DNA of 63,980 nt, counting the filler, from Bonamia ostreae (taxonomy: Eukaryota), in NCBI GenBank assembly GCA_040357525.1. It is 5 parts of 5 records of this genome, joined end to end, with 100 filler letters (N's around TTAATTAATTAA, not from the genome) between each part and the next. Parts side by side here need not be neighbours in the genome. Positions count along the whole stretch, not along the records: positions 1 to 14,214 come from JBDODL010000008.1; positions 14,315 to 28,330 come from JBDODL010000009.1; positions 28,431 to 42,028 come from JBDODL010000010.1; positions 42,129 to 55,181 come from JBDODL010000011.1; positions 55,282 to 63,980 come from JBDODL010000053.1. One strand, given 5' to 3'. Below the pieces are notes generated by a model. That model saw only the letters and a list, made by a program, of their open reading frames with translations, made no database searches and was not told where the DNA came from. This document shows, in pieces, positions 236 to 63,600 of this stretch; position 1 is the first letter of the stretch; the number at the start of each line of letters is the position of its first letter. Both the position numbers and the translations under genes were made by a program.

Positions 236-3200
236 ATGGCGAGTAATCATATTAAAATCACAAAACCAGTCAGCGACTACAAAGACTACATTCTAGTTAG
301 AAAAGACAAAATTCCCGTTTTCCTTTTAAAAATCAGATCGTTCTCGTGCATGACCCTAAAGCGCAACTTAACGCAATGGCTATTTCAATAGGAGTTGGCT
401 CCATTTCTTGCAAAAAAATTAACGGGCTCGCTCACTTTATCGAACACGTTTTACGATTTTTATTTAAAAGTTGATATTTCAGGGCGGAAAGAAAAATCAG
501 AGTTTTCAGAAAACGACCTCGGAATTGGGCGGTCTAACAAATGCATTCACCGCCGGCTTACAAACAGTGTTCATGGCAAGCTTCAGAAGCGAAGAAACAG
601 AGAGAGCTATAAGAGAGTTTACAGAAATGTTGTTGGATCCAAAATTTGAAAGTTGTTCAAATTTTAATAGTCAAAATTTGCAGAAACGAAATATAAATTT
701 AAAAGTCGAAGAATCGGAGAAAGAAATAAAAGCGGTGAATAACGAATCGGTAATGGATAAAGACAAAGACGGATGGAGAACAATGCTCGTACTCAAAGAT
801 ATAATTAGAAACAAAACAGATCATCCGTACTCAATCTTCGGTTGTGGCAACTCTGAAACTCTCAAGTTTGCACATTTCCCAATTTCACTAACAATTTACA
901 TTTCTTATCGTAAATTTTCAAATTCAAAAGAGATGTAAAAAGAGAGGATATTGTCGATTTTTGGGAAAAACATTACGCCAAACATCCGATAAGAATAAGT
1001 TTGTATAAAGATTCTTCTATTAAAAACAATAAATTTTAATGACAAAAAACTTTAAAATAACAAATTTTAATATCAAAAAACTAAAAATTTTAATAACAAA
1101 AAACTTAAAAACTAATAATTTTAATAACAAAAAACAAATTTTAATAACGATAAATTGTCCAACAAAACTGTTAATTACAAAAAAAGCACTTTACACAAAA
1201 CAACCGTTCGATGAGGTCATACCTTTTCTGAAACCATTCCTACATCTCCAAACAGAAGACGAACGCATCGAAATCAGCGAAAACCCTTTCGAAGTTCTCC
1301 AAGGATTGCGCATCAACGTCTCTTCCCTCTGCGAAACAAACACTCTCTGCTTCAATTTCCCCATGAAGCCGGTCTACTTCAAACCCACCGCCGGCGACAT
1401 GTACCCTCTCCAACTGCTCATCCAAAACCCCGCGGACCTCGAGGCAGCGCTCGTCGACAAACAGCTGGCCTCTCAAGTCGTGGCCGGTCTCGACGAAAAC
1501 ACCCCGTTCGGCTGCGTCTTCTCGATCGAAGTGCAGTTGACCGAAAGAATGACAACAGAAGAGGGCGTTGCGTCGGTGACAGCGCTACTTTTCAGTTTCC
1601 TCGAGAATCTGAAAAATATGTACAGCGGCGACGAAGGTAAAGAGCGAACAGAGAGGCATTTGGAGTACGCCGCTTATCTGAAGCAATTCCATTTTGACCA
1701 GAGAGACTCTCATAGTGCATTCGACGAAGTAACCGAGATCGTTTTGAACACGGACCGAAATCTCCCAGACCTGAGAAATGTGTTGCAGAACAGCAGCAAA
1801 ATCGTTATAGAAGACGCTCGCGAGAGTTTTTTGGAAGGATTGGCCGCGCTGAATCCGCAGAACGTGTTCATGGTCTTCTCCCGCAAAAATCATCCTGAGG
1901 ATAAGGTTCCCAACGAAGAGAAATGGTTTGGGGCAAGATATGGAGTGGTAAAGATGAATATTCCAACTACTGAGAAATTTAATGTCGGGGCGACTGAATT
2001 GATTCATAAATACGTAGAGCCTACACTTTTCGAGGCACCGGATTACGAAAAACGAGAAAAGGGAGTCTCTGTGTTCATCAAGTTTTTAAAAACGATTTTA
2101 AATTTGCAAAAATTGGTTAAAAAATTTGCAAAAATCGATTAAAAATTTGCAAAAATCGTTTAAAGGAACCGAACGTCATTCAAAAAACTGCTAATTTACA
2201 TGAGAACAAATTTAGTTCTCAATAAAATTTCTTTTCCAGACGGAATGGATTTAAAAGACCTCTTCGTTTTCCACATCGTTGCAGATCTGTTAAACAAATC
2301 GATCTTGCGCGAAATGTCTCATTATTCTCGCATCGGAAGCGGCTTTTCTATCGGAGTTTCAATTGAAGGCTTTAGTCTAACAATGTCCACTTATCCAGAG
2401 CACTTTAGTGAAATGCTAGACAGTGCAGTTAATTATTTAAATCAATTTATACAAATGGATTTTGATGCTGATTTGCAAAAATACATTCGACATTGGTTTG
2501 AACACGCGAAGAAAGATTTGGTTTCTGGCATTGCCAACGAAAAGATCGTCCAGCCATATCAACAATGGTTTCCTATATTTTCATGGTCAAAAATTAATAA
2601 AATTACAAATAAAATTTAGTCAATATTTGTTGGATCAATTGATGCTCGACAATGAAAAGACAATCGAACAAAAATTACAAATCGCTGAAAATTTGAGCTT
2701 AAATGATCTGGAACGAATAAATAAAATCTTCGGTAATAAGGAAAATTCAAAATTTGGAGTCAGAATGCGTTTTGCGATTAAAAATATTATTAAAAATGGA
2801 AATTAGAATTTAAATTTGAAATATTTTAGTTTTACTCGGGAACACTTTTCCGGATTTGCAACATTATGTGGAAAAAGCCTTTCAAGAATATTTTGAAAAC
2901 TCGATTCCTGACGAACAATTATATGAAAGAAAAATAAACTCTTACGAGTCCGACGTTTATTTGCGACAAAAAGCGACTGCGCCTGGCACTAAAAATTCGG
3001 GAGTGATCGTAGCGCGCAGTCTTGGAAGTGCTGATGATGTTTTTAACAAAATTTTCATTTTCGGACTAATTTTGATTTTTTGTGATTAATTTGTAAAAAC
3101 AGTTTTTGCATTTTCGAACTAAAATTTTGATTTTTTGTTATTAATTTGTAAAAACAGTTTTATTTTTTGTAATTAATTTTCAAATACTGTAAAAGTTGCG

Positions 3201-7378: not shown

Positions 7379-8749
7379 TCAACTAATAAAAATTTGCTCA
7401 CGTTTCTTGTTGATATAAGTTAAAAATTTTAATGTGATCACACAAAAATGATAATTATCGTTTAATTTGAAGGGGACCCAGTGGATTTTCTCTGGATCAC
7501 AAAGAGAAACACTCGACAGACTCTTTTTGTGTATCTTTGAGCTGTCAATGCAAATCGTAAAGGGGCCATTAGGATTCGCGACTATCGCGTTGAATTTTTT
7601 CAGCGCATCGAGGATGTCTTGTTGCTTGATAAAGCTGAGCTTGCTTATTCGTTTGATCGTTATTGTTTCCGTGCTCGGCAAAGATTCGATCACTTCCGTC
7701 ACGCGGCGATACCAGTATTTAGTGTAAGTGGCCTCGCCGAGATCAGACAGCGGCCGCTCGGGAGTGCCGATCTTGTTTTCGATTTTGGAAAGTTCATAAG
7801 CTGGAATTAAAGCATAAAACAAAGCGAAATCAAAAAATTTCCGAATCCTCTTTTTTGATAACAAGGCAGCGTCATTATACAGGCCAGATTGTAGTCTAAA
7901 TCAGAGCGTTTCTCCTTCGAAAAGTAGCCCACGAAACGGCACCCGATGTCGGTTACTTCACAGAGAACGTAAAACAAAAACGGGACTTCCAATGTCGTGT
8001 TAGAAACTTGTGTCGTATTGCAACGTTTTGTGGTCTAGAAACAGCTTCGACAGATAGCAGATGTTCTTTGGCTCGATATAAATTACCTGTGAGTACTCTA
8101 TTTCCACGGCTCCGTCGACTTCGAACACGTTTATTGTGGTTTTCTCTTCTTCGGATCTGTAAATCTCATTGCCGGGAGGATGGCAGACGCGGCAGCGTTT
8201 CTTTAGTAAATTGAGTAAAACGCAATGTTCCGTCAGTTCTTTCGAACAGCAAAAGAAGCGCAGGCAGAAATCGCAAAAATAGACTATTTTCTCGCCGTTC
8301 ACTTCCCCGACAAACTGTGGCGAGATTGGACTGAAGTACCTAAAATCTGATATTCAAACCAAGCTTCCATCACATCCTCGCCGAAGATCACTTTGTCGAT
8401 GTTTTTGATTCGAGCGTGTTTGTGTCTGTGGCTTTGGACGAGACAGCTTTCCGAGGCATTCCGGGCGACCTCGGATTTCTTTGGCTGTTTTGGCTGTTTT
8501 TGAGCCGACTGTCTGGACTGCGCGAGCTGCGGAATGTTCTCCAGGCGCTCTGAAGTCACCCATTCGTCCATGCGTTTGTCGGTGTTTTCGTAGTGGACGT
8601 AATACATTGTGTTGCTCTTCCTAGACGTCTTTTTGTCGATGACATAGCACCGCTCTTGAGATTTTTTAAAAACAACTTCTGATTCCTTTTCTGTTAAGAC
8701 AATACACAAGCTTTCTCGATTCTTTTTTCTCTGGCGTCTCTACAGACAT
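7379..8749 (-). CDS. ESA1: MYST-family histone acetyltransferase (Esa1/Tip60-like) with chromo-barrel domain
   Basis: YYVHYENTDKRMDEWV, spliced EAWYFSP, C2HC FCDFC, HPPGNEIY, LSKLFLDHKTL, VGYFSKEK, NLACIMTLPCYQKRGFG, GTPERPLSDLG; several 20-22-nt introns. Confidence 0.93.
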
Positions 8750-11835: not shown

Positions 11836-14214
11836 ATGACAAATTCAAAATCGCTGTTCGACCTTCTATCTCTCGATAAAGAAATTAGAACTTGTCTCGA
11901 CAAAAATAAAAAAGTTGCGGAAAGAATGGAAAAATTGTTGACCGAATCAAAGTATTTACGAAGTGGAAGCAAAATCCCAGAGGATCAAAGCAAACTTCTT
12001 TACACTTTTGCCAAAAAGGGCTACAAATCAGATTCGGCCGAAATCCACTCATTCGTCGTGAGAGACTTAATCATTGATCAGTTCAAAGACTAATCTTAAA
12101 TTTCAAATATCAAAAATTGAATTTTAAAATTTCTAGAAAAATAACCAGCCAGGAGCAGTTGGATGCCGCTGAAAAATATTTTTCCAAAAACAGCAAAATA
12201 GACTTCGACGATTTCGAAAAGAACTGTGGAATCGGTGTTACGATAACGGACGACGAAATTCGTTATTGTGTCAGAGAAATTCTGGAAGAAAACATAGAGC
12301 TTCTCAAAAACCAAAAGTTTTATAGCACTTAAACCAGATGGGACATTTATCCAAAACTACGAAGCGGGCTTATGAAAAATCTGAGAAACAAATTGCCTTG
12401 GGCTGACGGCAAGAAACGATTAGAGATTTTCAATTCCGAAGTGGAAGCTATTATTGGACCAAAACCGAAAATATCAGTCAAAAAGAAGTCTCCTTCAAAG
12501 ATTAACTCCGAAGAAGGTTTTCTGCTCAACTCGTAAAGAACAAGTGAAAGGAGCGATCGGGTTGGATAAATACTTGAAGGGGCGTAAGATGAGCATTGTA
12601 TACAACACTAAAGAAATCTACGCGGAACATGTCGAACGCACCAAAGGCGTTTTTCATTCTCGCTTTCCACCCGAGCCAAATGGCTATCTCCGTTCATTAA
12701 ACTCGAATAAAAGATATTGGCCACGCGAAAGCGATAAACTTTGATTTTTCGCTCGCTAAAGCTAAAAACGGAGAGTGCATTCTGCGTTTCGACGACACGA
12801 ACCCGCTCGCAGAAGACATAGACTATATTGAAAATATAATCGATGTTTTAAATTTCAGCTCGAACAGAACGTAAAATGGCTCGGCTTCGAGCCTTCCCGT
12901 GTTACTTATTCCTCTGATTATTTTGACGAATTGTTTGCTTTTGCGGTCAAAATGATAAAAGATGGAAATGCTTACGTGTGCCACCAACCACAAGAAGAAA
13001 TAAAACGATCCAGATTTGCATTTTCATTTTTACAGATTTGCGCATCAAAACCGGAAAACCACAGCCGAGTCCTTTCAGAGATCGTCCGGTCAAAGAAAGT
13101 TTGAGACTTTTCTATGAAATGAGAGACGGTTTATGTTGGAAAAGTCAAAATAATTTTAGCTTTTCTGTTTAATCAAAATTGTAAACAGAAGCAAAAACCG
13201 CAATTCAGCTTTTGACATTTTAATATTCTGCTCAATAATTGTCTATATGTCTCAGTCCATTTTGATATTCTGCTCTACAATTCAATAATTTTAATTCCGA
13301 TTAAAGGAAAGTTTGAACCCGGAGAAGCTACATTGAGGATGAAGGGTGATTTGGAACACCCCAACCCAAACATGTGGGATCACATCGCTTATCGAATCAT
13401 TGATGCAACGCATCCGCACGTCGGAAATAAGTGGAGAGTGTACCCGAGCTACGATTTCACTCACTGCATCGTCGACAGTTTGGAGGACATCGACGCTTCC
13501 TGTTGCACTCTGGAGTTCGAAGTTTTGCCAAAATAATTTTCACTTGTTGAAAAATTAGAATCGAAGAGAAAGTTACTTTTGGTTGCTGGACAAATTGGGA
13601 TTGTTTAAACCGGTTGTGTGGGAATTTTCGCGGTTGAACATGGACCACAATGTCATGTCAAAGCGAATGCTCTCCGAATTAGTCGACCGCAAAATTGTGC
13701 GGGGGTGGGATGACCCAAGACTTTTAACGATAAATGGGATCAGAAGAAAAGGCGTTCCCGCTGAAGCGATCAATAATTTTTGTGAAAAAATTGGCGTTGG
13801 CTAAACTTAAATATACAAAAATTTATCAATTTAGTTTATTCACATTAACGTTCGACAATTCAAAGGTGACGAGAGCTCAAAACAGCATTTCGTCGACTTA
13901 TTTGGATGTCTTCACTATAAATGTGCTAGATTCAATTTGCAAAAGAAACATGGCTGTTCTGGATCCTCTTAAAATAATAATCACGGATTTTGACCAAAAC
14001 GAAACAAAAACAGATTTGTGTCCACTCTACCCAAACATAAAAAACAATGAAGAAAAATATGTAGTCACAATGAGAAAAACTCTGTTCATCGAAAAAACCG
14101 ATTTCAAACTGAAAGACGAAAAGGTTTAGAGATTTAATTAAATCAGAAATTTTTTGGACTTGCGCCGGGCAAAACAATCCGACTAAAATATGGAGTTAGA
14201 ATTCGATGCGACAA
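11836..14214 (+). CDS. QARS1: Glutaminyl-tRNA synthetase, 3'-truncated by scaffold end
   Basis: [18 protein letters not shown] after removing the 22-nt intron 12692-12713; [41 protein letters not shown]; eukaryotic N-terminal extension ([16 protein letters not shown]). Confidence 0.96.
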
Positions 14215-29995: not shown

Positions 29996-31649
29996 ATGAG
30001 TGGTTTTTCTACAAACAATTTGTCGCCTATTGGAACAAAACCTAAAAAGAAAGAGACTGAACATTCGCAGTTTTTTCCGAATCAACCAGGACGAACCCAG
30101 AACTCTGTCGAAAGCACTTCCTTCGGATCTCATTTGTACGAACGACTCGCATCGCTATCTATTGAAGAGAATTCTTTGTATCCTAAAAATCCTTTGCCTC
30201 CTATTGGAACAAAACCCCCACAGTTGTATGCCGAATATTCGTTATTTAATCAGCCGGAAAGAACCCAGAGCTCTGCAGTAGGCACTTCCTTCGAATTTTC
30301 TTGGAGAAACCCACATGAAAATGACACCTCGCTTTCAGATTTTGATCTTAGCGAGCTAGAAGGCTCGCTGTTTACCGAAGAGAGTTCACAGAATGTTTTT
30401 TTTATTATTCTCAGGAGAATGAGTCCAAAGATTCTCACTCAGTGCATCCGCAATACATTATGAGCTCGGCGGAAACCAAATCCTTGAATTTTGGTTTGCG
30501 GAGTTCACGCGGCCAAGTTCCGACAAATCCAATTAATCACGAAAAGCAACTAAATCAGTGGTTAAGTTTATGTCGTGGACCACGGAAAACTGAATTGCTT
30601 ACTCTTAAAAATTATTTTGTGTTCGACGGAAAATTGTTTTTTATGGATACTTCAGATAGCATAGATATACCAGAATCAAAAAATATACCGGAAGTTAGAA
30701 AAATCATTGTAAACTTGACACATTTAAATATAAAAAACGAAGTGGCGAAAGATTTTAACAAAACAGCAGAGTTCTTAATAAACCAGTTAATGACTCAGGA
30801 ATTACTCAGTAAAGATTGTCACTTTTACAAAACGGATTTTTGTAATAATTACTCGATAGTTATAGTTCCGAGTACAAAATGGAATAGCATCAAATCTTTA
30901 CTCTATAATGTCATCTATTGTGGATTTTATGGTAACTTCGTCGGATGTTTTTTTTTCTGTGGACATTTTGTTCTCGCGTTTCAATACAACGGAATAAAAC
31001 AAAATAAAATATCCTTGAATTCTTTTACCTTGAGGCAAATCGTAGCGTTTCTATGTTTTCTGGAGAATAAGGGATTTAGATTAGTGAAAGAATTTCAATC
31101 TAATGGAATGTTTTTAGATGATCGTGAAAATATAACATTCAATCGATTAGACATAGATACATTGTATAAGGGCCCTGCATACAATGCTGCTATAATCACA
31201 CGATTTCTAACAGGAAATCAAACTATTAAATATGATCAATCAGCACTCCAAGGCGTAATTGATGATATAAACTATTGCGTTCGGGGAAAAAATCGATTTC
31301 TTGCATCGAATATAAAACTGTTAATGGAAAATTTGCTGAGAAGTCCTTTATATTTCTCTGAACCACAACTTCCAAATGTGTTTTTGGTTCAAGTCCGTGG
31401 TAATAATTTTTGTTTTGTTTTCACATTTTAGACATCTTTTTTAATGACGGATCGGTACGTTCAGGCCAAATCAAAGAAGGAAAATGTGAGAATTTTAGAA
31501 AATGGGCATATCACTATTTTGTAACGAAGCAAAACGTATTACCTGAATGGACTGCGCACTATTTAAAAGGGAACAAATTATATTATGTATTCGGAGCAAC
31601 ATATGGAAACATTAACTTCTACGCCTATACAGATGAATCACCATATTAA
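29996..31649 (+). CDS. Hypothetical protein with duplicated PIGTKP motif and a probable pseudokinase domain
   Basis: Two 20-nt introns (30395-30414, 31412-31431) join three ORFs in frame. GHFVLAFQY and LRQIVAFLCFLENKGFRLVKEFQSNGMFLDDRENITF resemble kinase subdomains V-VII without HRD or DFG. Confidence 0.65.
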
Positions 31650-31855: not shown

Positions 31856-34800
31856 TTAAATAGAATTGACTACTTTCCCCAACGAACGAGCAATCGTTTG
31901 CTTTTTGCTGCGAATGCGAACATTTCCTTCTATAAAGTTTTCAGCGATTTTTTCGATCGATATGTTCATCAAAACGTAATCTCCTTTTTAAATTTGCAAT
32001 GAATTTTTTTTGGACAAAAATTCAAATTTCCGACAAACCAAAAATGCTTTTGGCGCAAAAATTGGCCGACAGAAAGTTTCCAGAATCGTTAATTAGATAG
32101 TCAGGCGTCAGACATTTCATTCTCGTTGCTCTGACAAGCTTGCTGCGAAAGTCCGAAAGTTCAATGTCGCTGTTTTTCAAGTTTATCTTGTTTTCCCAAT
32201 CGAACTCTGCCCACATTTCCGCAAAATCTCCGTCCGAACATTCCGATGGCCTCAAGAAATCGACGATTTTTAGATCCAATCTTCAATTGAAATTTTGAGA
32301 AGATATTAAGTTTTAGCTCTAAAAATGATTTGCCTTTTCATCCACAAGACGCCAAGTTCCGAAGCGGTTTTGTTGTAAGTCAAACAAGCGAAGATCGCTC
32401 CGCCGTCCGTTGAGACGGCTTTCAATCTAAGAGCGATTTTAGAGCAATCGCCTGAAGCGATTTCAGCGCATTTTTGAGATTCCTCTGATCTCAATCCATC
32501 CGAGCAATAAATTTCTATTTCAATGTTCTTTAAATTTTTGAATTTTTTCCTCTTAAAATTGCAACAAAAACGAGAAAAATGTTAAAATTGTCTCCTAAAA
32601 TTGCAAAAAAATTGTTTTTTCTAATTCGCAAAAATATGTCAAAATTTTGCTTTTTAACTTTAATCGTATTTTCAGTTCGATTGTGAACAAAAAAGTCGAT
32701 AAAAATATCAAAATTCGACAATCTCGTCGTGCATTCAACATAAAGCGGATCTTGATATCCGGTCATTTGATGCACTAATCCACGTTTCAACCAGTTAAAA
32801 TTCTCGACGATTTCTAAAATTTTAAAATTTACTTTTGTTTTTCGAATTCAGAGAATAATCGTTCGTTATAAAGGGAATGTTTATCGGTTCGTCTATTTTT
32901 GACGTCTCCTAATTTTAAAATTTAGCTTTTTTAAAATTTTTTAAATATCGTCTAAACCAAAATTTATAAACTTTATCCAATTTTTTAGAAGATTTTACAT
33001 TCTTTTCTACTTTTTTCGTAAAAGCGTTTTTATATTTTTCTAACGATGTCATCATTAAAATACACTGTGTTATGTTCGAAAACAGATTTTTTTCGATATC
33101 TTTGTTAACTTTCAATATCTTGCACAAACACAAAACGCACTTTGTAAATTTTTGTTTTATTTAGATTTTAATTTTTCGTCGTTATAGCAAAATTATAATC
33201 TCAATTTTTATTTAAAAATCGCAATTTATTTTTTGCGAAATTATCAAAATTATCGTTAATTTTAAAATAAATCGACTTTTGCAGAAAACTCATTAATTAT
33301 TTTATTTTCTTTGTTGTCAAAATTATAAAGTCTCAGAACTAGCTTTGCAAGCGATTTCGCCAAACAAGCAGACATGAAACCATTTTTGTTTTTCATAATT
33401 TCGTTTCGCAAAAGAGTATTTTTGTCGTTCGCCACTTCCAGAAGTTTAACCAAAACGTTTTTAATGCTTTTCGGAGATTTTGAATGTTCGCCCAATATCC
33501 AAATCGACGTTCTTAACACGTTTTGTGTTTTTATTCTGGCCAAATTCGACTTAAAATGAGTTATTTTTAAGACCAAAATTTGCAAATTTTGTTCTAACAA
33601 TTTGCGAAAATTTATAAACGATAAATTTGTCGATAATTAACGGCAGGACATCTTTTCCATTCCCAACGACAGATTTAAGAAAGTTTGAAATATTTTTAGA
33701 ATTTTTGGCAAAACTTTCTCTGACGGCCAAATCAAAAGCGATGTCGATTACATCGGGAATAGCAGCATTTGTTTTCGTTCCGCACTGTTCATAATGAATA
33801 TTTAGTGATAAAATATTTATTTGAAAACTTCGAAAATGGAATTAATAACTAAATTCTTGTAATCTTCAGCCAAATTTTTTTCGAGTTCGCTTATCAAAAA
33901 TGATATTGTTTTTTTCTGATTAGAAGGTGTCATCAAATCCACCGCGATTTTCACCAAAATTTTTTTAGTTTCTTAATTTTGCACAAAATTTAGTTTTTTT
34001 TTAAAATAAACCAAAATCGTTTTTGTCGAAATTTCTGAAAAGTTCTGGGACACTGACAGCCATTTGAGACGGGAATTCGTTTTTATAATTGTCTAAAATT
34101 TCCAAAATGAATATTTTTGCGCTTGTATCGCTCGTTTGGTTCAAAATGTTAGTCATTTGGCTTTAAATAGCAAAAAATAACAGTAAATAGCTTTGAATTT
34201 CTGTCAACGAAGAATTGATTTTTTTGAATGACAACAATACGCGAAAAGCTTCAAATGCGATCGCTAAATTTTGCGACAAAGCTATTTTTTTTAAACATTT
34301 TTTGTAAAATTTGGCGCTTTCTTGAGTAATTTCGGTCTTTTAAAATTAGTAAAAATTGTCAAAGATCATTACAAAAAATATTTAGTAAAAATTTTCGAAA
34401 ATCATTACAAAAAATATTTAGTAAAAATTTTCGAAGATCATTGCAAATTTTTTTATTTTTATTAAACATTTTTAATAAATCGAATGATTTCAGATTGAAT
34501 TAAGTCGCTTTCGTTGTCCAAGTTTTGCCAAATTTTAGACAGAAAAGAATCAGCCATTTCTTCGTTTTTCTGTTTTAGAAAAACAAAATAATTTCTTTTG
34601 CAAGCATCGTCGCTTTCGGTCAACGCCTTTTCCAATAAAGCGTCATTAATTTCTTCAATCACACAGAAGCCGGTTTTTTCAGTTGAAATCAATGCCATTA
34701 ACGCGAATCGACGGCAAACGGCTTCTCCGTGTTCGAGATTTTGGATTAACTCTTGTTTGACCATTTCCAAAATTTGTGGATCCTGGAAAGAGCACAAAAG

Positions 34801-42714: not shown

Positions 42715-44813
42715 ATGCAAAAGTTGGTGCCGGTTACAAATAAACTGCAAGATATTTTCTCAACACTCCATTCAAGTCCGCTCCTTTTGGACTTGCCACA
42801 AATCGTTGTCGTCGGAAACCAAGTACTTTTATTCACCTTCGCCAGTCTTCCGGTAAAAGCTCGGTACTAGAAAGCTTTGTGGGGAGGGACTTTCTTCCCA
42901 GAAACAAAGGTATTTGCACAAGACGGCCGCTGATCCTGCAGCTGGTTTCCTCGAAGGAGGCAGTGCGCGAGTACGGGGTCTTCTTGCACCAGGAGGAAAA
43001 ACGCTACTCCGACTTTTCCAAGATAAGAGAGGAGATAATCGTTTTTCCCCTCATCAGCAGAACCTGACGGAAAAAGAGGCCGGCAAAGGCAAAGGCGTCA
43101 ACGAGAGGCCCATCGTCCTGAAGGTCTTCTCGGAAAAGTTCATCGACCTGACGCTAGTGGACCTGCCCGGCATAACGAAGGTGGCTGTGGGCGATCAGCC
43201 CACCGACATCGAGGAGAAGATCCGCGGCATCGTGAAGTCCTACGCGGAGAAGCCCAACACGCTAATCCTGGCGGTTATCCCCGCGAACGTGGACATCGCA
43301 ACCTCCGACGCGCTCAAGATCGCGAAGGAGCTGGACCCCCACAGCAAGCGCACGGTCGGAGTGCTCACGAAGGTTGACCTGATGGACAAGGGGGAGTCTG
43401 TCCGCGACATCTTGGGCGGAAAAGGTTTGCAGACACATCTTCAGTCTTCCCGCTCCGACACGGATACGTCGCCGTCAGGAACAGGTCGCAGTCTGAAATC
43501 GCGCTGAACGTCTCCGTGGCAGAAGGGCTGGAAAGAGAAAGGCGCTTCTTCGCAGACAACGCCCTATACAGGTTTCGCTCGCAACGCCAAGCGCCCTCGC
43601 GGAGCACACGGGCTCGGCGCGCCTCGCGGAGCGCCTCAGCCGGATCCTGGTGGCGCACATCAGAGCATTCCTTCCCGGGCTGCGGCTGCACGTCAGACGG
43701 ATGTCGGCAGAAGTGGAGAAGCGGCTCCGCAAAGTTAAGCTTTTTACGTCTTTGAAGTTCGGTGCAGACCCCTCCGACGGCAAAGGCGCCAAGCCGGCCA
43801 CGCTGCTCGCGGCGATCTCCAAGTACGCGAACAAGTTCAACGACGCGATCGAGGGGAAGGAGAAAGACGCCATCGCCAAGAAGGAGCTGTACGGCGGAGC
43901 GCGGATTTCAAAGATCTTCCACCAGGACTTCGCCGCGCAGGTGCTGCGGATCGACCCCTTCGACCAGCTGCGGAACGAGGAAATCAGCACCGCGATCCGA
44001 AACGCGAAGGTTGTCACCTCCACCTCAGGGCACCAAGCCGTCTCTCTTTGTGCCCGAGCTGTCCTTCGAGATCCTCTCGAAAAGCCAGATCGCGCGCCTG
44101 AGGGAGCCCGCGCAGCACTGCGTCGAAATGGTCTTCAACGAGCTCCAGAAAGTGTCCCTGAACTGCTCCGCGGCGGAGCTGCGGCGCTACTCGAAACTGA
44201 AGGAGAAAATTGCAGACTGCGTCGGCGACGTGCTCAGGGAGAATAAGAAGCCGGCGGTGGAGATGGTGGACCGCATCATCGATTGCGAACTGGCCTACGT
44301 GAACACCAACCACCCCGACTTTGTAGGTTTGATTTGACACCGAAGGCGGCAGCGAGGCGGTGCCCGTCGCGCTCGACAAAGCCAGGAGGGACGAAGCGCT
44401 CCGGGCGAAAAGCCTGGATGGCGCGGACGCGAAGGAGCAGAGGGGGAGCTCGCAGGCGCTGGAGAGGAAGTCGCTGAACAGACAGTCGATTGAGATCGAA
44501 ATAATAAGTTTCCATCGCAACTCCTAGAATCGCTGATCGCCTCCTACTTCCAGATCGTGAGGAAGAACGTGATGGACAGCGTCCCGAAAGCGATAATGAT
44601 GTTTCTGGTAAACAAGACGAAGGAAGACTTGCAGAGCAAGCTCGTCTCCGCGATGTACCGTGAAGAAATGGTTCGAATCTCTATTTAAAGATCGACGATC
44701 TTCTGGAAGAAGAAGCGGAGGTCTACGCCGAGAGGGCCCGGCAGAAAGAAATGCTCTCCGTTCTGCAGAAGGCGCTAAAGACTATCGAGGGAATCAGAGA
44801 GTTTAAAGTGTGA
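42715..44813 (+). CDS. Dynamin-related GTPase (Drp1/Vps1 type, no PH domain)
   Basis: [20 protein letters not shown] after intron 42823-42845; [54 protein letters not shown]; about 9 introns of 19-24 nt. Confidence 0.96.
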
Positions 44814-47136: not shown

Positions 47137-49118
47137 ATGGTGCAATACAACTTTAAGGAGATCTGCATCATCCCGACTGCATCCGAGTTCATCGACATCG
47201 TCCTCTCCAAAACACAGCGGAAGACGCCCACCGTGGTGCACCGGCGCTACCGGATCAGCAGCATCCGGCAGTTCTACATGCGGAAGGTGAAGTTCTGCGC
47301 CGCGACGATAAAGGAGCGCCTCGGAGGACTGCTCTCCAGCTTCCCCCGCGTAGATGTTTCCTTCGTCACAAGCAGAGCATCCACCCCTTCTACGCGGACC
47401 TGATGCACGTGCTCTACGACAAGGACCACTACAAGCTGGCGCTTGGCCAGCTCAACGCCACCCGAAACGTCGTAGAGAAGATCTGCAAGGACTACATCAA
47501 GTTGCTCAAGTTCTCCGACTCCTTGTACCGCAGCAAGCAGCTGAAGCGAGCAGCGATGGGCCGCATGTGCACCGCGCTCAAAAAACTCGACATCTCGCTC
47601 AAGTACCTCGAGGAGGTGCGCCAGCACCTCTCGCGCCTGCCCTCGATCGACCCGGCCGCGCGCACGTTGATCCTGGCGGGCTACCCGAACGTGGGCAAGT
47701 CAAGCTTCGTCAACAAAGTGTCCAGGGCAGACGTGGAGGTGCAGCCCTACGCCTTCACGACCAAGTCGCTCTTCGTCGGGCACTTCTTCCACGAGTACCT
47801 GCGCTGGCAGGTCATCGACACCCCGGGCGTCCTGGACCACCCGCCGCAGGAGCTGTCCGGCTGCAACACCATCGAGATGCAGGCGGTGACCGCCATCGCC
47901 CACATCCAGGCGAGCGTGCTCTTCTTCGTGGACCTGTCGCCGAGCTGCGAGTACTCGGTGGAGCAGCAGTTGCGGCTGTTCGAGTTCCTCCGGCCGGTCT
48001 TCGTCGCGAAGCCGGTCGTCTTCGTCGCGAGCAAGAGCGACCTCGTTCTTCCATCTCAACTTTAGCGCACGTTCCGCGACCTTCCCCCACGGGAGAAAGG
48101 CTTGATCGAGCAGACCCTCGCCGCGCACAAGATCCCGCTGGTGGAGCTCAGCAACCTCTCCGAGGACGGCGTCATCGCCGCGCGGGACAAAGCATGCGCG
48201 TTGCTACTGGAGGCGCGACTCGCCCGGAAGCTCGATTCCGGGCGCGGCGCGGCGGTGAAGGCCAGGCTCGCCATCACGCGGCCCTCTCCGCGCGACCACA
48301 AGGCGCGACCGCCATCGATTCCCGTCTCCGTGGCCGCGGAGAAGCTGCAGCCGCGGCCGAAGAAGCCGACAGTGCACGAGATGCAGGAGAGGAACGGCGG
48401 AGGCGGAGTCTTCAGCGTCAGTCTGCGCGAGCACTGGGACCTGCGCGACCCAGCCTGGGCAACCCACTCGGTGCCGGAGATCTTCGAAGGGCAGAACGTT
48501 TCGGACTGGATGGACCCCGACATCGAGGCCAAACTGGACGTTTTGAACTAATCCGTAGAAACTAGAGCGGGAAGAACGCGCAGCCGAAGACGTCATGCGC
48601 GACGACTCAGCTGAGTTGGATTTGGACGAAGACCAGCAGGAACTGTACGCCGCCGTGTTCGCTAAAACAGGCGAGATCAAAGCGGAGGCGTTCGTGCGGA
48701 GGACGCAGAACAAGCCGCGTCCAAACAGAGCAAAGTCTGCGGTGAAGGACACGACCGGCGAGATGGCCAGAAAGCTCGCGGCGATCGGCTACCAACCCGC
48801 GAAAGCAGTGAGCCGCATTCAAAGAGACGGAAAACTGTTTTGACCAAAACGTTTTAGAGAAAAGCGCAAAAACAGAGTAAAAACCGACTTTGCGAGAGAG
48901 CGAAACGAGTTGGCGGCGCTGGCAGAAGAACACGGCCTGAGCTTCGAGGTTTTGAATTGCAATCGCAGGAGGAAACAAGGCAGAAGCGCATGAGCAACAG
49001 GGCTATCCGCAAGAGCGGCGCAGGCGCTCGATCCGGGGGCACCGGACGAGTTTTGACCAGCCGACCGAAACATCTTTTTAGCGGAAAGCGTAAGTTGGGC
49101 AAAACTAACCGTCGTTAA
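47137..49118 (+). CDS. NOG1: Nucleolar GTP-binding protein 1
   Basis: [86 protein letters not shown]; five 19-22-nt introns. Confidence 0.97.
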
Positions 49119-52385: not shown

Positions 52386-52404
52386 ATGCCAAAATATTCT
52401 GACG

Positions 52405-54135: not shown

Positions 54136-54237
54136 TTAGAGCCCAGACGGATTTCTGCGTTATATGGGTTTAGTATAAACGTCAATGTAGTATTGTCATC
54201 TTTTAGCATTTCCGATTTATTGTTTAAAAGCAAGTTT

Positions 54238-54947
54238 ATGTTCCATAAAGGCTTGCTCGGCACAAACGTCCTGAAGGCGACACGAAGCATTTTCACGCCC
54301 TGGGGCAGAGTCCGACATGACAAAGTACTAATTAGTAAAATATAGCTCTGGAAGCCCAAACTCGTGGTGGGGCTAGGGAACCCCGGAATGGACGGTACTA
54401 GACACAACCTCGGCGCCATGTGGGTGCGACACATTGCGAAACAGTGTGAAGCACAGTTAGAGCCCCTTCCAAAGCTCAACTCTGCGGTGTGCCGGCTCGA
54501 CAATCCCGAAAAGACCGTTCTGATGGTTCCGACCACGTTTTGCGCGCGACTTTAAGGTACATGAACTTGAGTGGGGAAGCCGTCAAACAATGCATCACCG
54601 AACTTGGGATATCCCCGGACGACGTGGCAGTCGTGCACGATTGCCTCGAAGTCGAAGTCGGCGAAGTGAAAATCAGGAAAAAGGGCTCTCTCAACGGACA
54701 CCACGGGCTACTTAACATCGCCCGGGAGACGGGTCACAAAAAGCTGAAAAGACTGTCGATCGGAATAGGCCGCCCTGACAGCGTGGAAGAAGTGATCGAT
54801 TATGTCCTGGGCAAACCCGATTTGGAGGATTTTGCTAAAATTGAAGGCTTCGCCTTTAATTTTGTCGGAAATGAGTTTATAAAAGAGCTCTATGACGCCC
54901 CAGAAGATAAGATGATCGGAATCCCCGTTTTAGGACACGAAAATTAA
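54238..54947 (+). CDS. PTH1: Peptidyl-tRNA hydrolase, bacterial type, probably mitochondrial
   Basis: Presequence-like N-terminus, LVVGLGNPG..TRHNLG, PTTYMNLSG, VVHD, GHHGL, RLSIGIGRP, DYVL; two 20-21-nt introns. Confidence 0.93.
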
Positions 54948-55447
54948 ATTTTAATCTGTTCTGCAAATTTTTGTATTGCATGTTTATCTGTCATTGACAA
55001 TATCACCCGTACTTTATTTTTTTATCTTATTAATTTCACAATACTAATTGTTCTGTAAAATTACAAGAAATTTTCATTTGGATATCCGTGTAAAGTCTTG
55101 TGCGTGATAATTAACGTTACGGAAAATTTTTGGAAATATTGCACATCGTAAAATTATTAATATTCATATGGCCGCACTCACNNNNNNNNNNNNNNNNNNN
55201 NNNNNNNNNNNNNNNNNNNNNNNNNTTAATTAATTAANNNNNNNNNNNNNNNNNNNNNNNNNNNNNNNNNNNNNNNNNNNNAACATTTTGAAATATGTAC
55301 ATAAAAACAGTTACTAGACGAGGAACTTTTTCTCATCAAACTTTTGGAATTAACTAAAAAAAGAACACAGAACATTAAACCTCCGCTATATAACAAATCC
55401 CGTAAAGTTTATATAATCCAGAGCTTATATTATACCGTTATACTGGC

Positions 55448-58400
55448 ATGGCCACAACGCAACAACAAACAACTGACAGCCGACCAGTGCAAACCTTCTG
55501 GCACCCGCTCCCGCAGTCTTTCTGGGGCAGAAACAGAATCGCCGCGTGGCTCCTGCTCTCCGACTTCGCCTCCCCGCACGCTCACACCTTCCACGAAAAC
55601 GGCATCGACTACGCCGCTTTCGTCAAACTAGACGAAAACGCCCTCGTCGCTTTGAAAGTGCACAGCTCCCTCTGCCGAACGAAGCTCTCTAGGATAATCG
55701 CTCAAGTCCGCAATTTGCCGCCGACGAAGCCTCGCCTCGCGCGCAAGAACTCCGCCCCGATGTGGACGAAGGAAAACGTGCTGGACTGGCTCGACTCGCT
55801 GAGCTTCGGGTGGCGCTTCATCCCCCGCTTCCAGCAACTGGCCATCGACGGCAAAAAACTGGTGCGCCTCGGCCCCAAGTCGCTCGCGATCCTGATCGGC
55901 GTCGACTCGAGACCGCTCGCGAAGCGATATGTGCTCGCCATCAACAGCCTCAGCAAGTCGGGGAACTGGCGGCACATCGTCGACACAGATTTCGACATCG
56001 AGCTGAGCAGCCCGGACGCGTCGCTGGGCTTTTTTTCGACAGCGTACGTGGTTTCGGCGGGGTTGAAATCAGCCGGCGCGAAGTTGAACGAGGCGTTCTT
56101 CCCGTTCAACATGAAACAAATCAACTTGGCCATGTTCACGTACAAAGACGCATTTTTGCGGAAGAAGAAACGCAATTCGATGGAAGCGAAAGAAGTCGCT
56201 TTGTGGTTGAGGCACATGGGCTACGAAAACGAAGTGGTCGAAACTTTTCGGAGGAACGGAGTTGACGGCGTTCAGCTTTTCGATTTGGAGGAGGAGGATA
56301 TCAGAGGTGAACTTGGCATCAGAGACCCGCAAAATTGTCTAAGGCTTTTGTGCGACATCAATTTTTTGAGGTCGTTTTGAAATTTGGATGTGCGAGGAAA
56401 AGCACTTTTTGTTTCAAATTGTTTAAAAATTGTTTGTCATTTTTTGAATTGTCAAAAATTGTTTAAGAAATTGTCGTTTTTAAATTGTTGCCAAAAATTG
56501 CTTAAAAATTGTCGTTTTTGGATTGTTATTTAAAAAATGGTCGATTTTGATTTGCATGTTTAAAAAATTGTTGTTTTTGGATTGTTAAAAATGTCGTCGT
56601 TTTTGTTTAAATTGCTATAATTTGTTGCAAAATTTAAAACCACATTGAAATTAAATTTATCTGTCATTTTTGATTGAAACAACAACAAAAACAAAATCTA
56701 GAGAAGAAATGGGGAAATTGTTTAACATTTCGACGTTACTGAGATTGTACAAAGAAAACTACAAAAAAATATTAAAGAAACAACGCGCAAAACATTCGCA
56801 GCAAATCGCGATCTACAAAGAATCTGCTTTCGAGACAATGAAAGAATTTGAGCCATTTCTCGATATTCTCGGACTTTCTAAAACGTACCCCGATACGTTC
56901 CCAGATAAACACGGCGCCAAAGAAAATCGGCGCAGACGCTCAACTCGCCGCTCAACCGCGCCAAAGAAAAGGGGAAACGAGTTCCATCAGAGCAACGAAA
57001 GTGGTTCGACCGAAGAAAATCAAATTGCGAAAAACGAACATTTTTTTCGCAACATTTTGAAAAAGAACGCTTTCCGGAAAAACACAAATCGCTCTTTATT
57101 CAAAGACGCCTTCGTCCGCGAATGGGTCTCGAAAAACGAAATTTCGCGAGTGTACAAAGACTGCTTCGCGTCCTTTACAGAAAAAGATCTTCTGGAGTCA
57201 ACGGAGGATCAGTTGTCCAAGCGCTGCGGACTGCCCCCGACTGAGATGCGAGAAGTCATGGCGGCCGTGGACCAGTTCCGCATCGAAAACTTTAGGCGGA
57301 GATTGAAAGATTCCGCTTCAAAACCGAACGAGTTCCCGAAAAGGACCACAAAAAACAGTGCGCGAAATCGCAATTTTGCGGCCGAAGAAGCTTTTTATCC
57401 GTCAAAGAATGGCGGGTTCGGCAAGCCAGTTAAAAACGATAGATACAACGCGCTGAAAACGCCACTGCCGTTTTATCACGCAGACGAGTTCAGGGCCGGC
57501 GCGCGCAGCAGCAGTGCAAACATTCCGAACGCGGCAAGAAGCGGCTTCAGAAACATGGCGCAGAAGCGGTTTAAAAGAATGGGCACAGAAACGAAAAGAC
57601 TGTCGGACTTCCTGGCGGTCCAAAGGAAAGACAAAACGAACGGTTCGGCGAATGGCGCCGTTGCATCGCGAAGTTCCGAAAAGAACTTTGCTCGTTCGCC
57701 CGAAATCGCTAAATGGAATCCGCGAGCGCAAAGTTTGAAGAGCGAAGAGAAAGTGCCTCCGCCGCCGCCGAACGACCCGAGGCCGCCTTTCGATGTCGGA
57801 AAATGGTCTAATTCGCATGTTTTTTCGTATCTCAAAAGTTTTTTGCGATCAACGTTTAGACATTTCTGAACTGCGCCCGTTCCTCCAATCGCTGAGGAAC
57901 TTGAACGGCCGCTCTCTCCTCGACATCGCGGGACGAAAATCTTTCGGGGCTCAGAAAAATTTTGATTTGAAATGTCTTTCGGTGCTCAAAGGCGTTTCGA
58001 AAGCGCTTTCGTATCGCGATTTGCAGAACACGGCGGTGGAGACTTGGACCCCGTCGAACGTGCAAAGTTGGTTCGAAATCGACACTGATTTGCCTAAATA
58101 CGGCGAACTTTTCAGACAGAAAAACATCAGCGGTCGTCTGTTAGTGCAATTGACGCACGAAATGTTATTGGGAGATCTCGGCATCAATCTCGCTGAAAGG
58201 GAGCGCATTCTTGTGAGTGTTCAGAAATTGATGTTATTTTTTGCAAATATTATTTTTGCATTAAAATTGTTGTTCATTTTTTTTTGCATTAAATCCGACA
58301 TCAAATTAAGTTCCAAAGCAAAACCACAAATCAATCTGCCCCAAACTGGTTNNNNNNNNNNNNNNNNNNNNNNNNNNNNNNNNNNNNNNNNNNNNNNNNN

Positions 58401-59692: not shown

Positions 59693-60536
59693 TTAAAAAT
59701 CGGCCAATTCGGCTTTGCGTTTAAGGTACCGCTCGCGGGCGGCGTTCAAATCCTTTTCACAGTTGCGCCTTGCGCCAAAATTCTCCTTCTTCCTATCGAA
59801 CGTTTTGATTTCGGGAAGACCATATTTTTCTTTCCATTGCGACTCCTTCGAACCCTTTCTTTCCTGATCCTTCGAAACCAGCTCCTCCGAAACCGGTTTT
59901 GCCTTCGCAGAAGCTTCCCGCTCGAAGTCTTTGTTTTCACTTTTATTTAATTTGGATTCGCCTAATTTTTCCGCGAAAAGAGCTTGTTTGAAGCGAAGTT
60001 CGCTCTCGACCGCGTTGTTCTTTTCGGTCAAGTTCTTTCGTTCCTCCTTTTCGATCTGACGCGCGAGTTTTCTGCGCTGTTCTAGGACATTGCGGTACGC
60101 GGGAGTGACCAAGACTGGCTTGTCTTTGAACAGGAAATCGTCTTTTCCTCGCTCTCGAATTTGCGACCTTTCGTAGGCCATGTCGTTTTCAGCTTTTCTG
60201 CGTTCGAGGTTTTTCTTTATTTTCGCAATGTACTTGGACTAAATTGCCAATCTCAACCTTTTTGGGGCCATTCTCTTTCTTGTCCAGCGCATTCGCGGTT
60301 CTTTTTCTTTCCAGCGACTCATAAACCTCGTCGTATTGGAACACAGTGCTGTCTTGTTCCAGCGCTTCGACGCAATTACGTCTCGCCTTTTGCAGCTTTT
60401 TGCCCGCAGTGCCGATTTTGCCGCCATCCGCCTTTCCGGACGAGCCGGACTTTCGTTTCAAAGCCGACTCGACGTTGGCCGCCGGTTCGGCGGTTTTCCG
60501 TTTGAAACTCATTCTGAAACCACCCGCTTTAGACAT
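59693..60536 (-). CDS. NSRP1: Nuclear speckle splicing regulatory protein 1 (CCDC55/DUF2040)
   Basis: ALEQDSTVFQYDEVYE, SKYIAKI, FKDKPVLVTPAY, AARERYLKRK; one 19-nt intron. Confidence 0.85.
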
Positions 60537-60617: not shown

Positions 60618-63600
60618 ATGCACATAAAGAAAATAACCATCGAAGGCTTCAAATCGTACAAGGACAAGACCGAGCTCGTCTTGGACAAGGGCCACAACAT
60701 AATCGGTTCGATCGCAACTATTTTAGTCGGGAAGAACGGCTCCGGCAAGTCCAACATTTTCGCCGCGCTGCAGTTCGTCCTCGGCGACACCTTCACCAAT
60801 CTCTCCGCCGAAGAGAAGTACCGCCTCATTTACGTTTTCCCGCCAATTTTAGGAGGACAACGACAAGCGCCACTTGGCCGCCGCCGTCGAAGTCGTCTTC
60901 GACAACAGCGACAAGCGCTTCCCGCTCGCCTCCGACCAGCTCGAGATCAAGCGCGTCCTGGGCCCGAAGAAAGACGACTACTTCGTCAACCGCAAACACG
61001 CGACGTTTCCTCTCTCACCTAAAGCAAGTCCGCCGTCGACGGGCTGCTCGAGAGCGCCGGCGTCGCGCGCTCGAACGCCTATTTTGCCGTGCAACAAGGC
61101 AAGGTCGACCGCCTCATCCGCATGAACGACGCGCAGCGGCTGAGCCTGTTCAAGCAGATCGCCGGGACCAGCGTCTACGAGGCCAAGCGCGGCGAGAGCG
61201 TCCGGCTGATGCAAGACACCGCGCGCAAGAACGCCCAGATCGAGCAGATCGTCCGCGGCATCAGAGCGAGGCTGTCGGAGCTCGAGGGCGAGAAGAGCGA
61301 GTTGCTGGACTTCCAGCGCAAGGACGGCGCGCGGAGGACGATCGAGCGCAGTGTCTATCTGCGCGAGGTTTCGCTTCAAAATGGCAGAAAGAAAAATGCG
61401 CGGCGCGGTTGGAAGTCGCTTCGCGGAAGAGGCGGAGCGCGGAAGTAAATCTTGCCGAGAGCGTGTGCGAAGCCGAGGCGGCGGAGAAGGGTCGGAAGGA
61501 AGCGCGCGACGAACTCGGGCGGCTCGGCGCGGCGGGCGAAGGGCTGTCGCAGAAGATAAAGAGGAACGGCGCGCTCCGCAGAAGGCAGAGCGCCAGTCTG
61601 GTTCGGCTGGAGGCGAGGCGCGATTGGGCGAAGGAAGTGGTGTCGAAGAGCGAGAAGCGTCTGGCGGCGCTGGGAGAGTTTTTGGAGGTTGGAAAAGACA
61701 ATTTTAGTCGATGGAGAGGCGGATTGACGCAGGAGCGGAGAAGAGCAGAGAAATGGAGCGGTTTGTAGAAAAACTGGAAGACGAGAAAACAGCTTTGGCG
61801 AAAGAGCTTGGCCCTAAAAAACAAAAATTGGAGTTGCCAAATTTTATTTAATTGCAAAAAATTATCGAAAATTGCAAATTTATTTTAATTACCAAAAAAT
61901 TTATCGAAAATTGCAAATTTATTTTAATTACCAAAAAATTTATTTTAACTGAAAAAATTTATCGAAAATTGCATTTTTTAATTGCAAAAAAATTGTCGAA
62001 AATTGCAAATTTATTTTAATTATCAAAAAATTTATTGCAAATTTATTTTAACTGAAAAAATTTATCGAAAATTGCAAATTTATTTTAATTATCAAAAAAT
62101 TTATTTTAACTGAAAAAATTTATCGAAAATTGCAAATTTATTTTAATTATCNNNNNNNNNNNNNNNNNNNNNNNNNNNNNNNNNNNNNNNNNNNNNNNNN
62201 NNNNNNNNNNNNNNNNNNNNNNNNNNNNNNNNNNNNNNNNNNNNNNNNNNNAAAAAATTTATTTTAACTGAAAAAATTTATCGAAAATTGCATTTATTTA
62301 ATTGCTAAAAATTTATCGAAAATTGCAAATTTATTTTAATTATCAAAAAATTTATCGAAAATTGCAAATTTATTTTGATAAAAAAAAAGGTTTTTGCAAG
62401 CAAAATGTGGAAGAAAAGATATGTTTTCGACCAAATCGGAAAGAGACGAATTCTTGCTCAGACAAGTGAGCTCGAAAAAATTGTTGATTGAAAACGATAT
62501 CGCCAGAAAAGCATATCTGTCTAACCAACTGGACAAAATCGACTCAAATCGGATTGCGAAAAAAGGCGAAACAATCGAAAACGAAATAAAGCATCTTCAA
62601 AGCGCAATCGAAAAAGACGACGCAAAATATGTCAAAGATCTGAATTCGCGAAACAAATTTTCGTTGCAAAGAAAGTTTAACAATTTTCAATTTCAGGAAA
62701 ATTTGGAAAGAGTTGGACAAAGTGAACTCCGAAACATTAACAGTCCGCAACGTTCTTTCGAGAGCCGAATCGTCGTTGCGATATTCGATGGCCAAAGTTT
62801 TGAATCGCCACAATTTTAGGGCCAATACGATTCGATAAGGAAAATCAAAGAGTCCACCTCTGAGGGTTACAGAGGTTGTTTAAGCGAGTTGTTTACTCTC
62901 AAACACCCCAAATTCGCAAAATGCGTCGAGAAAACAGCCGGAAGCAGGCTGTTTTTTCATGTTGTCGACGACGACGAAATCGCCGCTCGACTTATCGCCA
63001 CAATCAATCGTCAAAAACTCGGAAGTTAAAACTTATTCGTGCAATTAATTGATTTAAAAATCTTTTTGTAATAAAATGCCAAAATTTTGTTTTGATAATC
63101 AAAAAAATGTTAACTTATTTTAAAATTCGAAAAATTGAAAAAAGGAACGACGGTAATGCCATTGAACAGATTGAATGCGCCGAAAGAACTAAAAATTGCC
63201 GAGGAAGACAAACAAGACGTCATCCCAATGTTGAAACAAATCGACTTCGAAGAAAAGTTCCGCCCGGCTATGGCGCAAATCTTTGGCAAAACCGTTATCG
63301 CCCGTTCTATCGACATTGCTTCTGCTTATTCCATTAAACATAACGTCGATGCCATCACTTTAGACGGTTATTCAAAATCTTATTTTCAATTTTTGACAAA
63401 ATTCGTCATTTCGATCAAATTTTTACCCAAATTTTACAAATTTGTCATTTCGATTAAATAATTTTAATATTGAAAGGCGACAGAGCGTCAAAAAGAGGTT
63501 ATTTGAGCGGCGGCTATAACGAAGGCAAAACCTCGAGATTGGAAGCGATTGCCGCGATTAAGAAAAACAGCGATGAATTGGAAACTTTGCTGAAAAAAGC

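Follow-up and report, generated by a model that had tools for sequence, protein, structure and literature searches.

Near-minimal introns with a GTT donor and a candidate branch-point adenosine in nuclear genes of Bonamia ostreae

The nuclear genes of the rhizarian parasite Bonamia ostreae (Rhizaria, Endomyxa, Ascetosporea, Haplosporida) are, very probably, densely interrupted by U2-type introns whose length has shrunk almost to the physical limit. This reading is based on a stretch of 63,980 nt from the assembly GCA_040357525.1 (hereafter the window), in which 36 GT–AG introns and one 20-nt AT–AC intron were pinned by annotation, by alignment to orthologues or by alignment to solved structures (Table 1). 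Twenty-five of the GT–AG introns are well supported, and the 11 of the beta-COP gene are of moderate or low confidence because the orthologue used there is only about 30–43% identical. All seven introns quoted in a first-pass annotation of the sequence run GT..AG on the plus strand, and the removal of each restores an open frame and the motif named for it; four of them (42823–42845, 43041–43060, 12692–12713 and 30395–30414) are spliced in public protein models. The intron at 317–336 is the weakest supported of the seven, while the exons flanking 448–470 match insulin-degrading enzyme weakly upstream (E 0.18) and with E 4e-6 downstream.

In the mechanism proposed here, the tiny introns (19–24 nt) would be defined by three signals. 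The 5′ end, G-U-U-(U), and the 3′ end, (A/C/U)AG, where −3 is never G, are read directly from the validated introns. Between them, a conserved A at intron position 13 (A13), often in the context C/A-A-C/T, would provide the branch point. Only 3–8 nt are then left between position 14 and −4, in which no pyrimidine tract fits.

The excision of these segments is suggested by public gene models, which were built with funannotate with RNA reads and already splice 15 of the pinned introns. The GenBank proteins MHBO_000085, MHBO_000069 and MHBO_000076 of B. ostreae are 100% identical to exons of the window, and mapping protein onto DNA letter for letter gives a single GT–AG solution at 13 of 14 junctions and an AT–AC solution at the remaining one. 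Homologues of dynamin, glutaminyl-tRNA synthetase (GlnRS), NOG1 and the MYST acetyltransferase are colinear with the genes of the window without the segments. The same picture emerges from a free protein-to-DNA aligner, which deletes any stretch of at least 10 nt at a fixed cost regardless of its end bases. With P0012, the uninterrupted 632-aa dynamin of a relative, as query, it removed 23, 20, 20, 10+10, 24, 19, 19, 20 and 17 nt from the dynamin gene, each deletion lying within a few bases of the GT..AG solution; forcing GT..AG ends cost 10 of 1670 score units and gave nine introns, all of 19–24 nt. In the corresponding alignment of GlnRS to P0122, five of 11 deletions fell exactly at GT..AG ends. 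When each of the 256 donor/acceptor pairs was forced, GT–AG ranked top for dynamin (1660 versus 1559 for the next pair; mean 1330, standard deviation 133) and, by a tiny margin, for GlnRS (1757 versus 1750 for TT–GA).

Lengths within the GT–AG set are distributed unevenly, with 23 introns at 19–24 nt, five at 25–60 nt and eight over 60 nt. The mode is 20 nt, and the tiny class comprises three introns of 19 nt, eight of 20, five of 21, two of 22, four of 23 and one of 24. The size range of 19–24 nt given in the first-pass annotation therefore applies to 23 of 36 introns and fails for the other 13, which measure 37–178 nt and lie mostly in AT-rich genes. As in known ultra-short systems, a narrow mode near the minimum recurs in many genes, and a peak at 19–23 nt also emerges when no intron length is favoured: a gene finder based on dynamic programming, with a flat prior of 10–150 nt, a demand for GT and AG only and no splice matrix, placed 35 of its 91 predicted introns at 19–23 nt, and 32 of 104 after retraining. 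The trained finder served to outline how lengths are distributed and to supply an independent set of introns in other genes. Frame-discriminating scores replaced an initial codon model whose single background had preferred GC-rich DNA of either strand.

Multiples of three account for 12 of the 57 tiny introns, validated and predicted together, and the three such introns in the first validated set all carry an in-frame stop. Depletion of such lengths, or stops within them, is known from Paramecium. The count is not interpretable here because detection based on open reading frames (ORFs) misses stop-free introns of these lengths, two of which surfaced only through alignment of the MYST gene to Tip60. 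These two, at 8066–8086 and 8201–8221, would each merely add seven residues if retained and are invisible to ORF-based methods.

The termini of the pinned set (36 GT–AG, one AT–AC) are those of U2-type introns, and the donor follows a consensus of its own. GTT begins 31 of the 36 GT–AG introns (GTTT in 22) and GTA three, and GTRAG, the core of the U2-type GTRAGT donor, occurs in none; the first-pass description of GTT(T) donors in place of GTRAG was thus accurate. The excess of GTT is significant (binomial p 1.1e-7) against a background in which T follows 0.43 of all GTs in the window (0.36 of those within predicted coding sequence). It is also independent of local composition, with GTT in 14 of 17 introns in AT-rich flanks and in 17 of 19 where the flanks reach 40% G+C or more. 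Among introns predicted without a matrix in other genes, 38 of 56 carry T at +3. Acceptors read AAG in 19 introns, CAG in 11, TAG in six and GAG in none, and 13 of the 36 end in AAAG, in agreement with the A-rich acceptors noted earlier. The absence of a pyrimidine tract was also correctly perceived: the 3–8 nt between position 14 and −4 of the tiny introns contain 0.64 pyrimidine, and no T peak is found in the long introns.

The search for a branch point gave a more differentiated result. CTRAY is absent from all 23 tiny validated introns, as the first-pass annotation had stated for CTRAC-like motifs, and long introns show no surplus of YTRAY (4 versus 7.1 ± 1.8; 11 versus 15.5 ± 2.8). The accompanying claim that there is no clear branch point is not supported. 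In the first validated set, 16 of the 20 tiny introns have A at position 13 (p 9.4e-7, given an interior A frequency of 0.27), and the two neighbouring positions have A in 5 and 3 of 20. A13 recurs in 10 of 16 matrix-free tiny introns of other genes (p 0.009) and in 22 of 37 of the trained set. All eight validated 20-nt introns, all three validated 19-nt introns and the AT–AC intron have it; among the seven introns of 22–24 nt, as counted by eye, five have A13 and one has A at −8. The commonest contexts of positions 12–14 are CAC, AAC, CAT and TAT. A13 is likely to be the branch point. The putative branch A would lie 7–8 nt from the 3′ end in most introns, as A13 does in those of 19–20 nt, and be kept at +13 in slightly longer tiny introns. 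Long introns carry A most often at −8, in 9 of the 13 validated and 23 of the 36 predicted ones.

These observations bear on an alternative put forward in the first-pass annotation, namely that a reduced spliceosome with altered U1/U6/U2AF recognition identifies the introns mainly by their length, without a branch signal and aided by base pairing between the T-run at the 5′ end and the A-run at the 3′ end. The narrow mode at 20 nt speaks for it, as do the lack of GTRAG and CTRAY and the missing pyrimidine tract. However, the 13 validated introns of 37–178 nt carry the same GTT donors and lie in the same genes as the tiny ones, hence recognition cannot depend on length alone. The signals shared by long and tiny introns imply a machinery that recognises sequence and spacing, and the position-specific A13 also speaks against recognition mainly by length. 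The proposed pairing found no support, as the fold energy of the introns (−0.45 kcal/mol) hardly differs from that of shuffled sequences (−0.41 kcal/mol, p 0.35) and the complementarity of an intron's own arms (2.05) matches that between arms of different introns (2.01 ± 0.12). Given this lack of excess pairing, the T-richness of positions 3–5 is a donor signal and not one half of a stem. Furthermore, PMC11069148 (Hiltunen Thoren et al. 2024), in its accessible text, places the loss of splicing genes at the paramyxid–mikrocytid ancestor and within mikrocytids, and not in Bonamia. Recognition mainly by length is therefore improbable, and miniaturised U2-type introns with sequence signals of their own are the preferred reading.

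The AT–AC intron of the GlnRS gene fits this reading. At 13014–13033, the annotated protein is reproduced only by a 20-nt deletion with AT..AC ends (or, shifted by one base, TT..CA), and no GT..AG solution exists; forcing GT–AG throughout GlnRS lowers the overall score from 1813 to 1757. The intron starts with ATTTGC, has TT at +3/+4 and A13, and shares its length of 20 nt and its inner layout with the GT–AG tiny introns. It is therefore a copy of the common layout in which both terminal G's have changed together, as would be expected if the first and last intron bases were read as a pair. U12-type introns carry an ATATCC or GTATCC donor and the branch box TCCTTAAC. Assignment of this intron to the minor spliceosome, for which its AT–AC termini would argue, is very improbable, since ATTTGC does not match such a donor, nothing like TCCTTAAC is present and the layout repeats that of the GT–AG tiny introns.

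Removal from RNA and removal from DNA are not told apart directly by these data, and the segments might in principle be DNA elements eliminated from the genome, like the internal eliminated sequences of ciliates, or insertions arising from assembly or sequencing. The chance of this is close to negligible. The boundaries are GT..AG (36) or AT..AC (1) and not the TA..TA of internal eliminated sequences. All segments lie within coding frames, in all three phases, and form a tight length class; a common GTT start, A13 and AG end would not be expected of sequencing errors. Bonamia is not known for nuclear dimorphism. The miniaturised introns are probably removed at the RNA level in B. ostreae, and U1 or U6 may have co-evolved with them.

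Several results weigh against this interpretation. In the test of 256 forced pairs, GT–AG scored 951 for beta-COP, below at least six AT-rich pairs (up to 1064), which have many more candidate sites in a gene whose orthologue is distant. Two naive counts of joinable ORFs, against 8 control dinucleotide pairs in the first and 11 in the second, showed no surplus of GT..AG, and the approach was abandoned as too permissive. The trained gene finder recovers only 12 of 22 validated introns with their exact ends, hence the window-wide total of about 100–140 predicted introns, which together with the 37 validated ones bears out the "dozens" of the first-pass annotation, is a rough figure. With three further 21-nt introns included, the A13 signal falls to 16 of 23; none of the five 21-nt introns has it, and each carries A at 14 or 15. 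A textbook U2-type intron would have a different 5′ consensus and a pyrimidine tract. That B. ostreae transcripts are spliced is indicated by RNA-informed public annotation and homology rather than by reads, and the two uninterrupted proteins of relatives could derive from the DNA of an intron-poor relative and not from mRNA. The share of words found in three sequencing runs was 0.61 for X1 (the kind of which is a guess), 0.05 for X2 and 0.00 for X3; the first value, compared with the 0.70 of window 31-mers that lie wholly in predicted exons, fits RNA or partial DNA coverage alike.

Table 1. Introns pinned in the window; positions count along the whole stretch.
Intron	Gene	Position	Strand	Basis and remarks
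20-nt GT–AG	M16 peptidase	317..336	+	Frame restored from ATG; matrix-free finder; downstream exon aligns with insulin-degrading enzyme
23-nt GT–AG, after HFIEH motif	M16 peptidase	448..470	+	Exons abut at HFLEH/MLF of insulin-degrading enzyme
21-nt GT–AG, multiple of three, stop-free	MYST acetyltransferase	8201..8221	-	Exactly 7 extra residues versus Tip60, GT..AG bounds
21-nt GT–AG (GTAATT donor), multiple of three, stop-free	MYST acetyltransferase	8066..8086	-	Exactly 7 extra residues versus Tip60, GT..AG bounds
56-nt GT–AG	GlnRS	12081..12136	+	Exact MHBO_000069 map; orthologue alignment
21-nt GT–AG	GlnRS	12317..12337	+	MHBO_000069 map; orthologue alignment
22-nt GT–AG	GlnRS	12517..12538	+	Annotated protein only; orthologue alignment picks another acceptor, 12553
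22-nt GT–AG, splits HIGH	GlnRS	12692..12713	+	MHBO_000069 map; exact in free alignment
23-nt GT–AG	GlnRS	12845..12867	+	MHBO_000069 map; exact in free alignment
20-nt AT–AC	GlnRS	13014..13033	+	Annotated protein; free orthologue alignment removes same 20 nt
178-nt GT–AG	GlnRS	13129..13306	+	MHBO_000069 map; orthologue alignment
37-nt GT–AG	GlnRS	13522..13558	+	MHBO_000069 map; exact in free alignment
70-nt GT–AG	GlnRS	13796..13865	+	MHBO_000069 map; exact in free alignment
23-nt GT–AG, missed by public annotation	GlnRS	14124..14146	+	Exact in free orthologue alignment; annotated protein stops here
20-nt GT–AG	No assigned function	30395..30414	+	Spliced in MHBO_000076
131-nt GT–AG	beta-COP	34337..34467	-	Orthologue alignment; mostly 36-nt tandem repeat (34346–34447)
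21-nt GT–AG	beta-COP	34161..34181	-	GT–AG-constrained orthologue alignment; free alignment 21 nt, one base off
40-nt GT–AG	beta-COP	33972..34011	-	Orthologue alignment; free alignment 40 nt, one base off
44-nt GT–AG	beta-COP	33785..33828	-	Orthologue alignment; moderate confidence
70-nt GT–AG	beta-COP	33550..33619	-	Orthologue alignment; moderate confidence
137-nt GT–AG gap in model	beta-COP	33140..33276	-	Orthologue not alignable here; may hide small exons; low confidence
63-nt GT–AG	beta-COP	32909..32971	-	Orthologue alignment; moderate confidence
19-nt GT–AG (GTAAAT donor)	beta-COP	32814..32832	-	Matrix-free finder; orthologue alignment
131-nt GT–AG gap in model	beta-COP	32528..32658	-	Orthologue alignment; finder picks 32552–32571 instead; low confidence
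65-nt GT–AG	beta-COP	32281..32345	-	Finder; orthologue alignment; moderate confidence
55-nt GT–AG	beta-COP	31984..32038	-	Finder; orthologue alignment (free: 55 nt, one base off)
23-nt GT–AG (GTACTT donor), in P-loop	Dynamin	42823..42845	+	Exact MHBO_000085 map; orthologue alignment
20-nt GT–AG	Dynamin	43041..43060	+	MHBO_000085 map; orthologue alignment
20-nt GT–AG	Dynamin	43425..43444	+	MHBO_000085 map; orthologue alignment
20-nt GT–AG	Dynamin	43572..43591	+	MHBO_000085 map; orthologue alignment
24-nt GT–AG	Dynamin	43734..43757	+	MHBO_000085 map; orthologue alignment
19-nt GT–AG, missed by public annotation	Dynamin	44010..44028	+	Orthologue alignment; annotated protein out of frame beyond
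19-nt GT–AG	Dynamin	44327..44345	+	Finder; orthologue alignment
20-nt GT–AG	Dynamin	44508..44527	+	Exact in dinucleotide-free alignment
20-nt GT–AG	Dynamin	44671..44690	+	Finder; orthologue alignment
20-nt GT–AG	NOG1	47356..47375	+	Human GTPBP4: exon 1 ends at residue 73, exon 2 starts at 74
21-nt GT–AG, in-frame TAG at end	NOG1	48045..48065	+	Nog1 chains: exon 2 to about 293, exon 3 from about 294; also predicted

The missed introns have consequences for the public gene models, three of four of which, among those examined, end early at an unspliced intron (two tiny ones of 19 and 23 nt and one of 131 nt). The dynamin model (gene at 42715–44813) misses the 19-nt intron at 44010 and yields 474 aa with an out-of-frame tail instead of at least 632. 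The GlnRS model (gene at 11836–14214) stops at the missed 23-nt intron at 14124, and a public protein of 234 aa corresponds to exon 1 of beta-COP alone (gene at 31856–35166, about 880 aa), ending where the 131-nt intron starts. Long genes contain nine introns in the case of the 632-codon dynamin and at least 11 each in GlnRS and beta-COP. For the same assembly, the accessible text of PMC11069148 reports "canonical introns", on average 2 per mRNA as opposed to the 9–11 per long gene found here, and coding sequences of 658 bp on average; it also reports 65.9% of conserved genes as found in B. ostreae, and infers gene losses. Since public models are cut at missed introns, the published intron density and gene content are possibly underestimates. 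Annotation blind to such introns may thus make the 2 introns per mRNA, the 658-bp coding sequence, the 65.9% of conserved genes and the inferred losses partly an artefact.

The window contains 14 runs of N and has a mean G+C content of about 35% (range 29–47%), with a sharp split between 29–35% in 1–42000 and 43–47% in 44000–56000. Longer introns are typical of the AT-rich genes, and tiny introns dominate the GC-richer ones. Across 107 introns, 74 of them only predicted, length falls with flanking G+C (Spearman rho −0.42, p 7e-6), and validated introns of at most 24 nt make up 6 of 17 in AT-rich flanks versus 17 of 19 in GC-rich ones. AT-rich tandem repeats with periods of 21–55 nt take up the bulk of five long introns; one of these introns is validated (repeat at 34346–34447) and four are predicted (repeats at 40610–40737, 3052–3161, 2088–2164 and 17915–18025). 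These repeat-filled introns look like short introns inflated by minisatellites. A further A-rich repeat, with a period of 54 nt, lies within the open frame of the M16 peptidase gene at 1020–1148 (plus strand) and represents either coding low-complexity sequence or an unrecognised intron.

A Pfam scan of 150 ORFs, those up to about 60.2 kb among the 166 that reach 90 aa or more, revealed ordinary eukaryotic nuclear genes split into short ORFs and readable with the standard code. They encode an M16 peptidase, squalene synthase, the MYST acetyltransferase, GlnRS, two SLC12 transporters, beta-COP, an FCP1-like phosphatase, SPC22, DnaJ, dynamin, NOG1, a DUF747 protein, peptidyl-tRNA hydrolase, a SAM-domain protein and an NSRP1-like protein. 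The two SLC12-type cation–chloride cotransporter genes form a tandem pair at 20930–23990 and 24209–26200 on the plus strand. The ORF at 59696–60238 on the minus strand, which matches the N-terminal domain of nuclear speckle splicing regulatory protein 1 (NSRP1), is the sole splicing-related gene noticed among the ORFs scanned. Rfam gave no matches on the window, either at gathering scores or at E <= 1, and ARAGORN found 0 tRNAs.

The canonical 5′ end of U1 is ACUUACCUG. A bolder extension of the present reading, which we regard as rather unlikely, is that splicing in B. ostreae uses a non-canonical GUUU as its 5′ splice site, read by a co-evolved U1 (predicted to carry ...AAAC for ...UUAC) or without U1. 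The branch A would be set by a fixed 12-nt ruler from the 5′ splice site, and the spacing between the two, rather than that from branch to 3′ splice site, would set the minimum intron. Taken together with the 16–17-nt introns of mikrocytids, miniaturisation would then have begun in the ascetosporean ancestor, and Bonamia would be an intron-rich intermediate.

Tiny introns as such are of a known kind, while the splice-site layout and the organism seem new to the searchable literature. No literature on intron sizes or splice logos was found for Bonamia or any haplosporidian, although subscription papers and supplements may hold such data. Older haplosporidian papers on actin genes may mention short introns. 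The transcriptome paper contains 0 occurrences of the word "intron".

The closest comparison is offered by the mikrocytids Mikrocytos mackini and Paramikrocytos canceri (Ascetosporea), for which the available text of PMC10245619 describes 224 introns of 16–17 nt with conserved sequence, absent from metabolic and transporter genes, and a reduced spliceosome. Like Bonamia, with which they are related, these parasites of marine invertebrates have numerous ultra-short introns in a narrow size range. However, all mikrocytid introns measure 16–17 nt and are highly conserved according to that text, whereas in Bonamia the mode is 20 nt, the consensus is weak and lengths reach 178 nt; among the validated introns none is below 19 nt, and their interiors vary. 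Bonamia also has about 9–11 introns per long gene, including genes for GlnRS and a peptidase, in contrast to 224 genome-wide in the mikrocytids as given there.

More distant systems share individual features. The nucleomorph of the chlorarachniophyte Bigelowiella natans, as cited in the same text, has AT-rich introns of 18–21 nt, more than 800 in about 300 genes. It is a relic algal nucleus for which that text reports no long introns, whereas in Bonamia the introns belong to the parasite's own nucleus and long introns coexist with tiny ones. Ciliates have very numerous tiny introns (Stentor, 15–16 nt; Paramecium), as cited in the accessible parts of PMC13644364 and PMC10245619, but are free-living, and the Bonamia window is without sign of a ciliate code. 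Among animals, the available text of PMC13644364 (2026) gives median lengths of 22–27 nt for myxobolids and similarly short introns for Dicyema japonicum, with reduced splice-site logos, a 5′ site "GTa", no tract and a few weakly conserved A's that lie farther from AG as introns lengthen. This shift matches the A fixed at 13 in the 22–24-nt introns of Bonamia, whereas the donor differs from GTa, with GTT far outnumbering GTA in Bonamia. Given that myxobolids and Dicyema are animals, their introns are of independent origin from those of Bonamia.

Bonamia thus adds an intron-rich rhizarian parasite to the few organisms whose introns approach the smallest physically possible size. Its GUUU donor, together with the A at +13 and an AT–AC intron of the same layout, constitutes a compact and testable set of minimal splicing signals, and the adjacency to the mikrocytids with their introns of 16–17 nt makes the two comparable as stages of one process.

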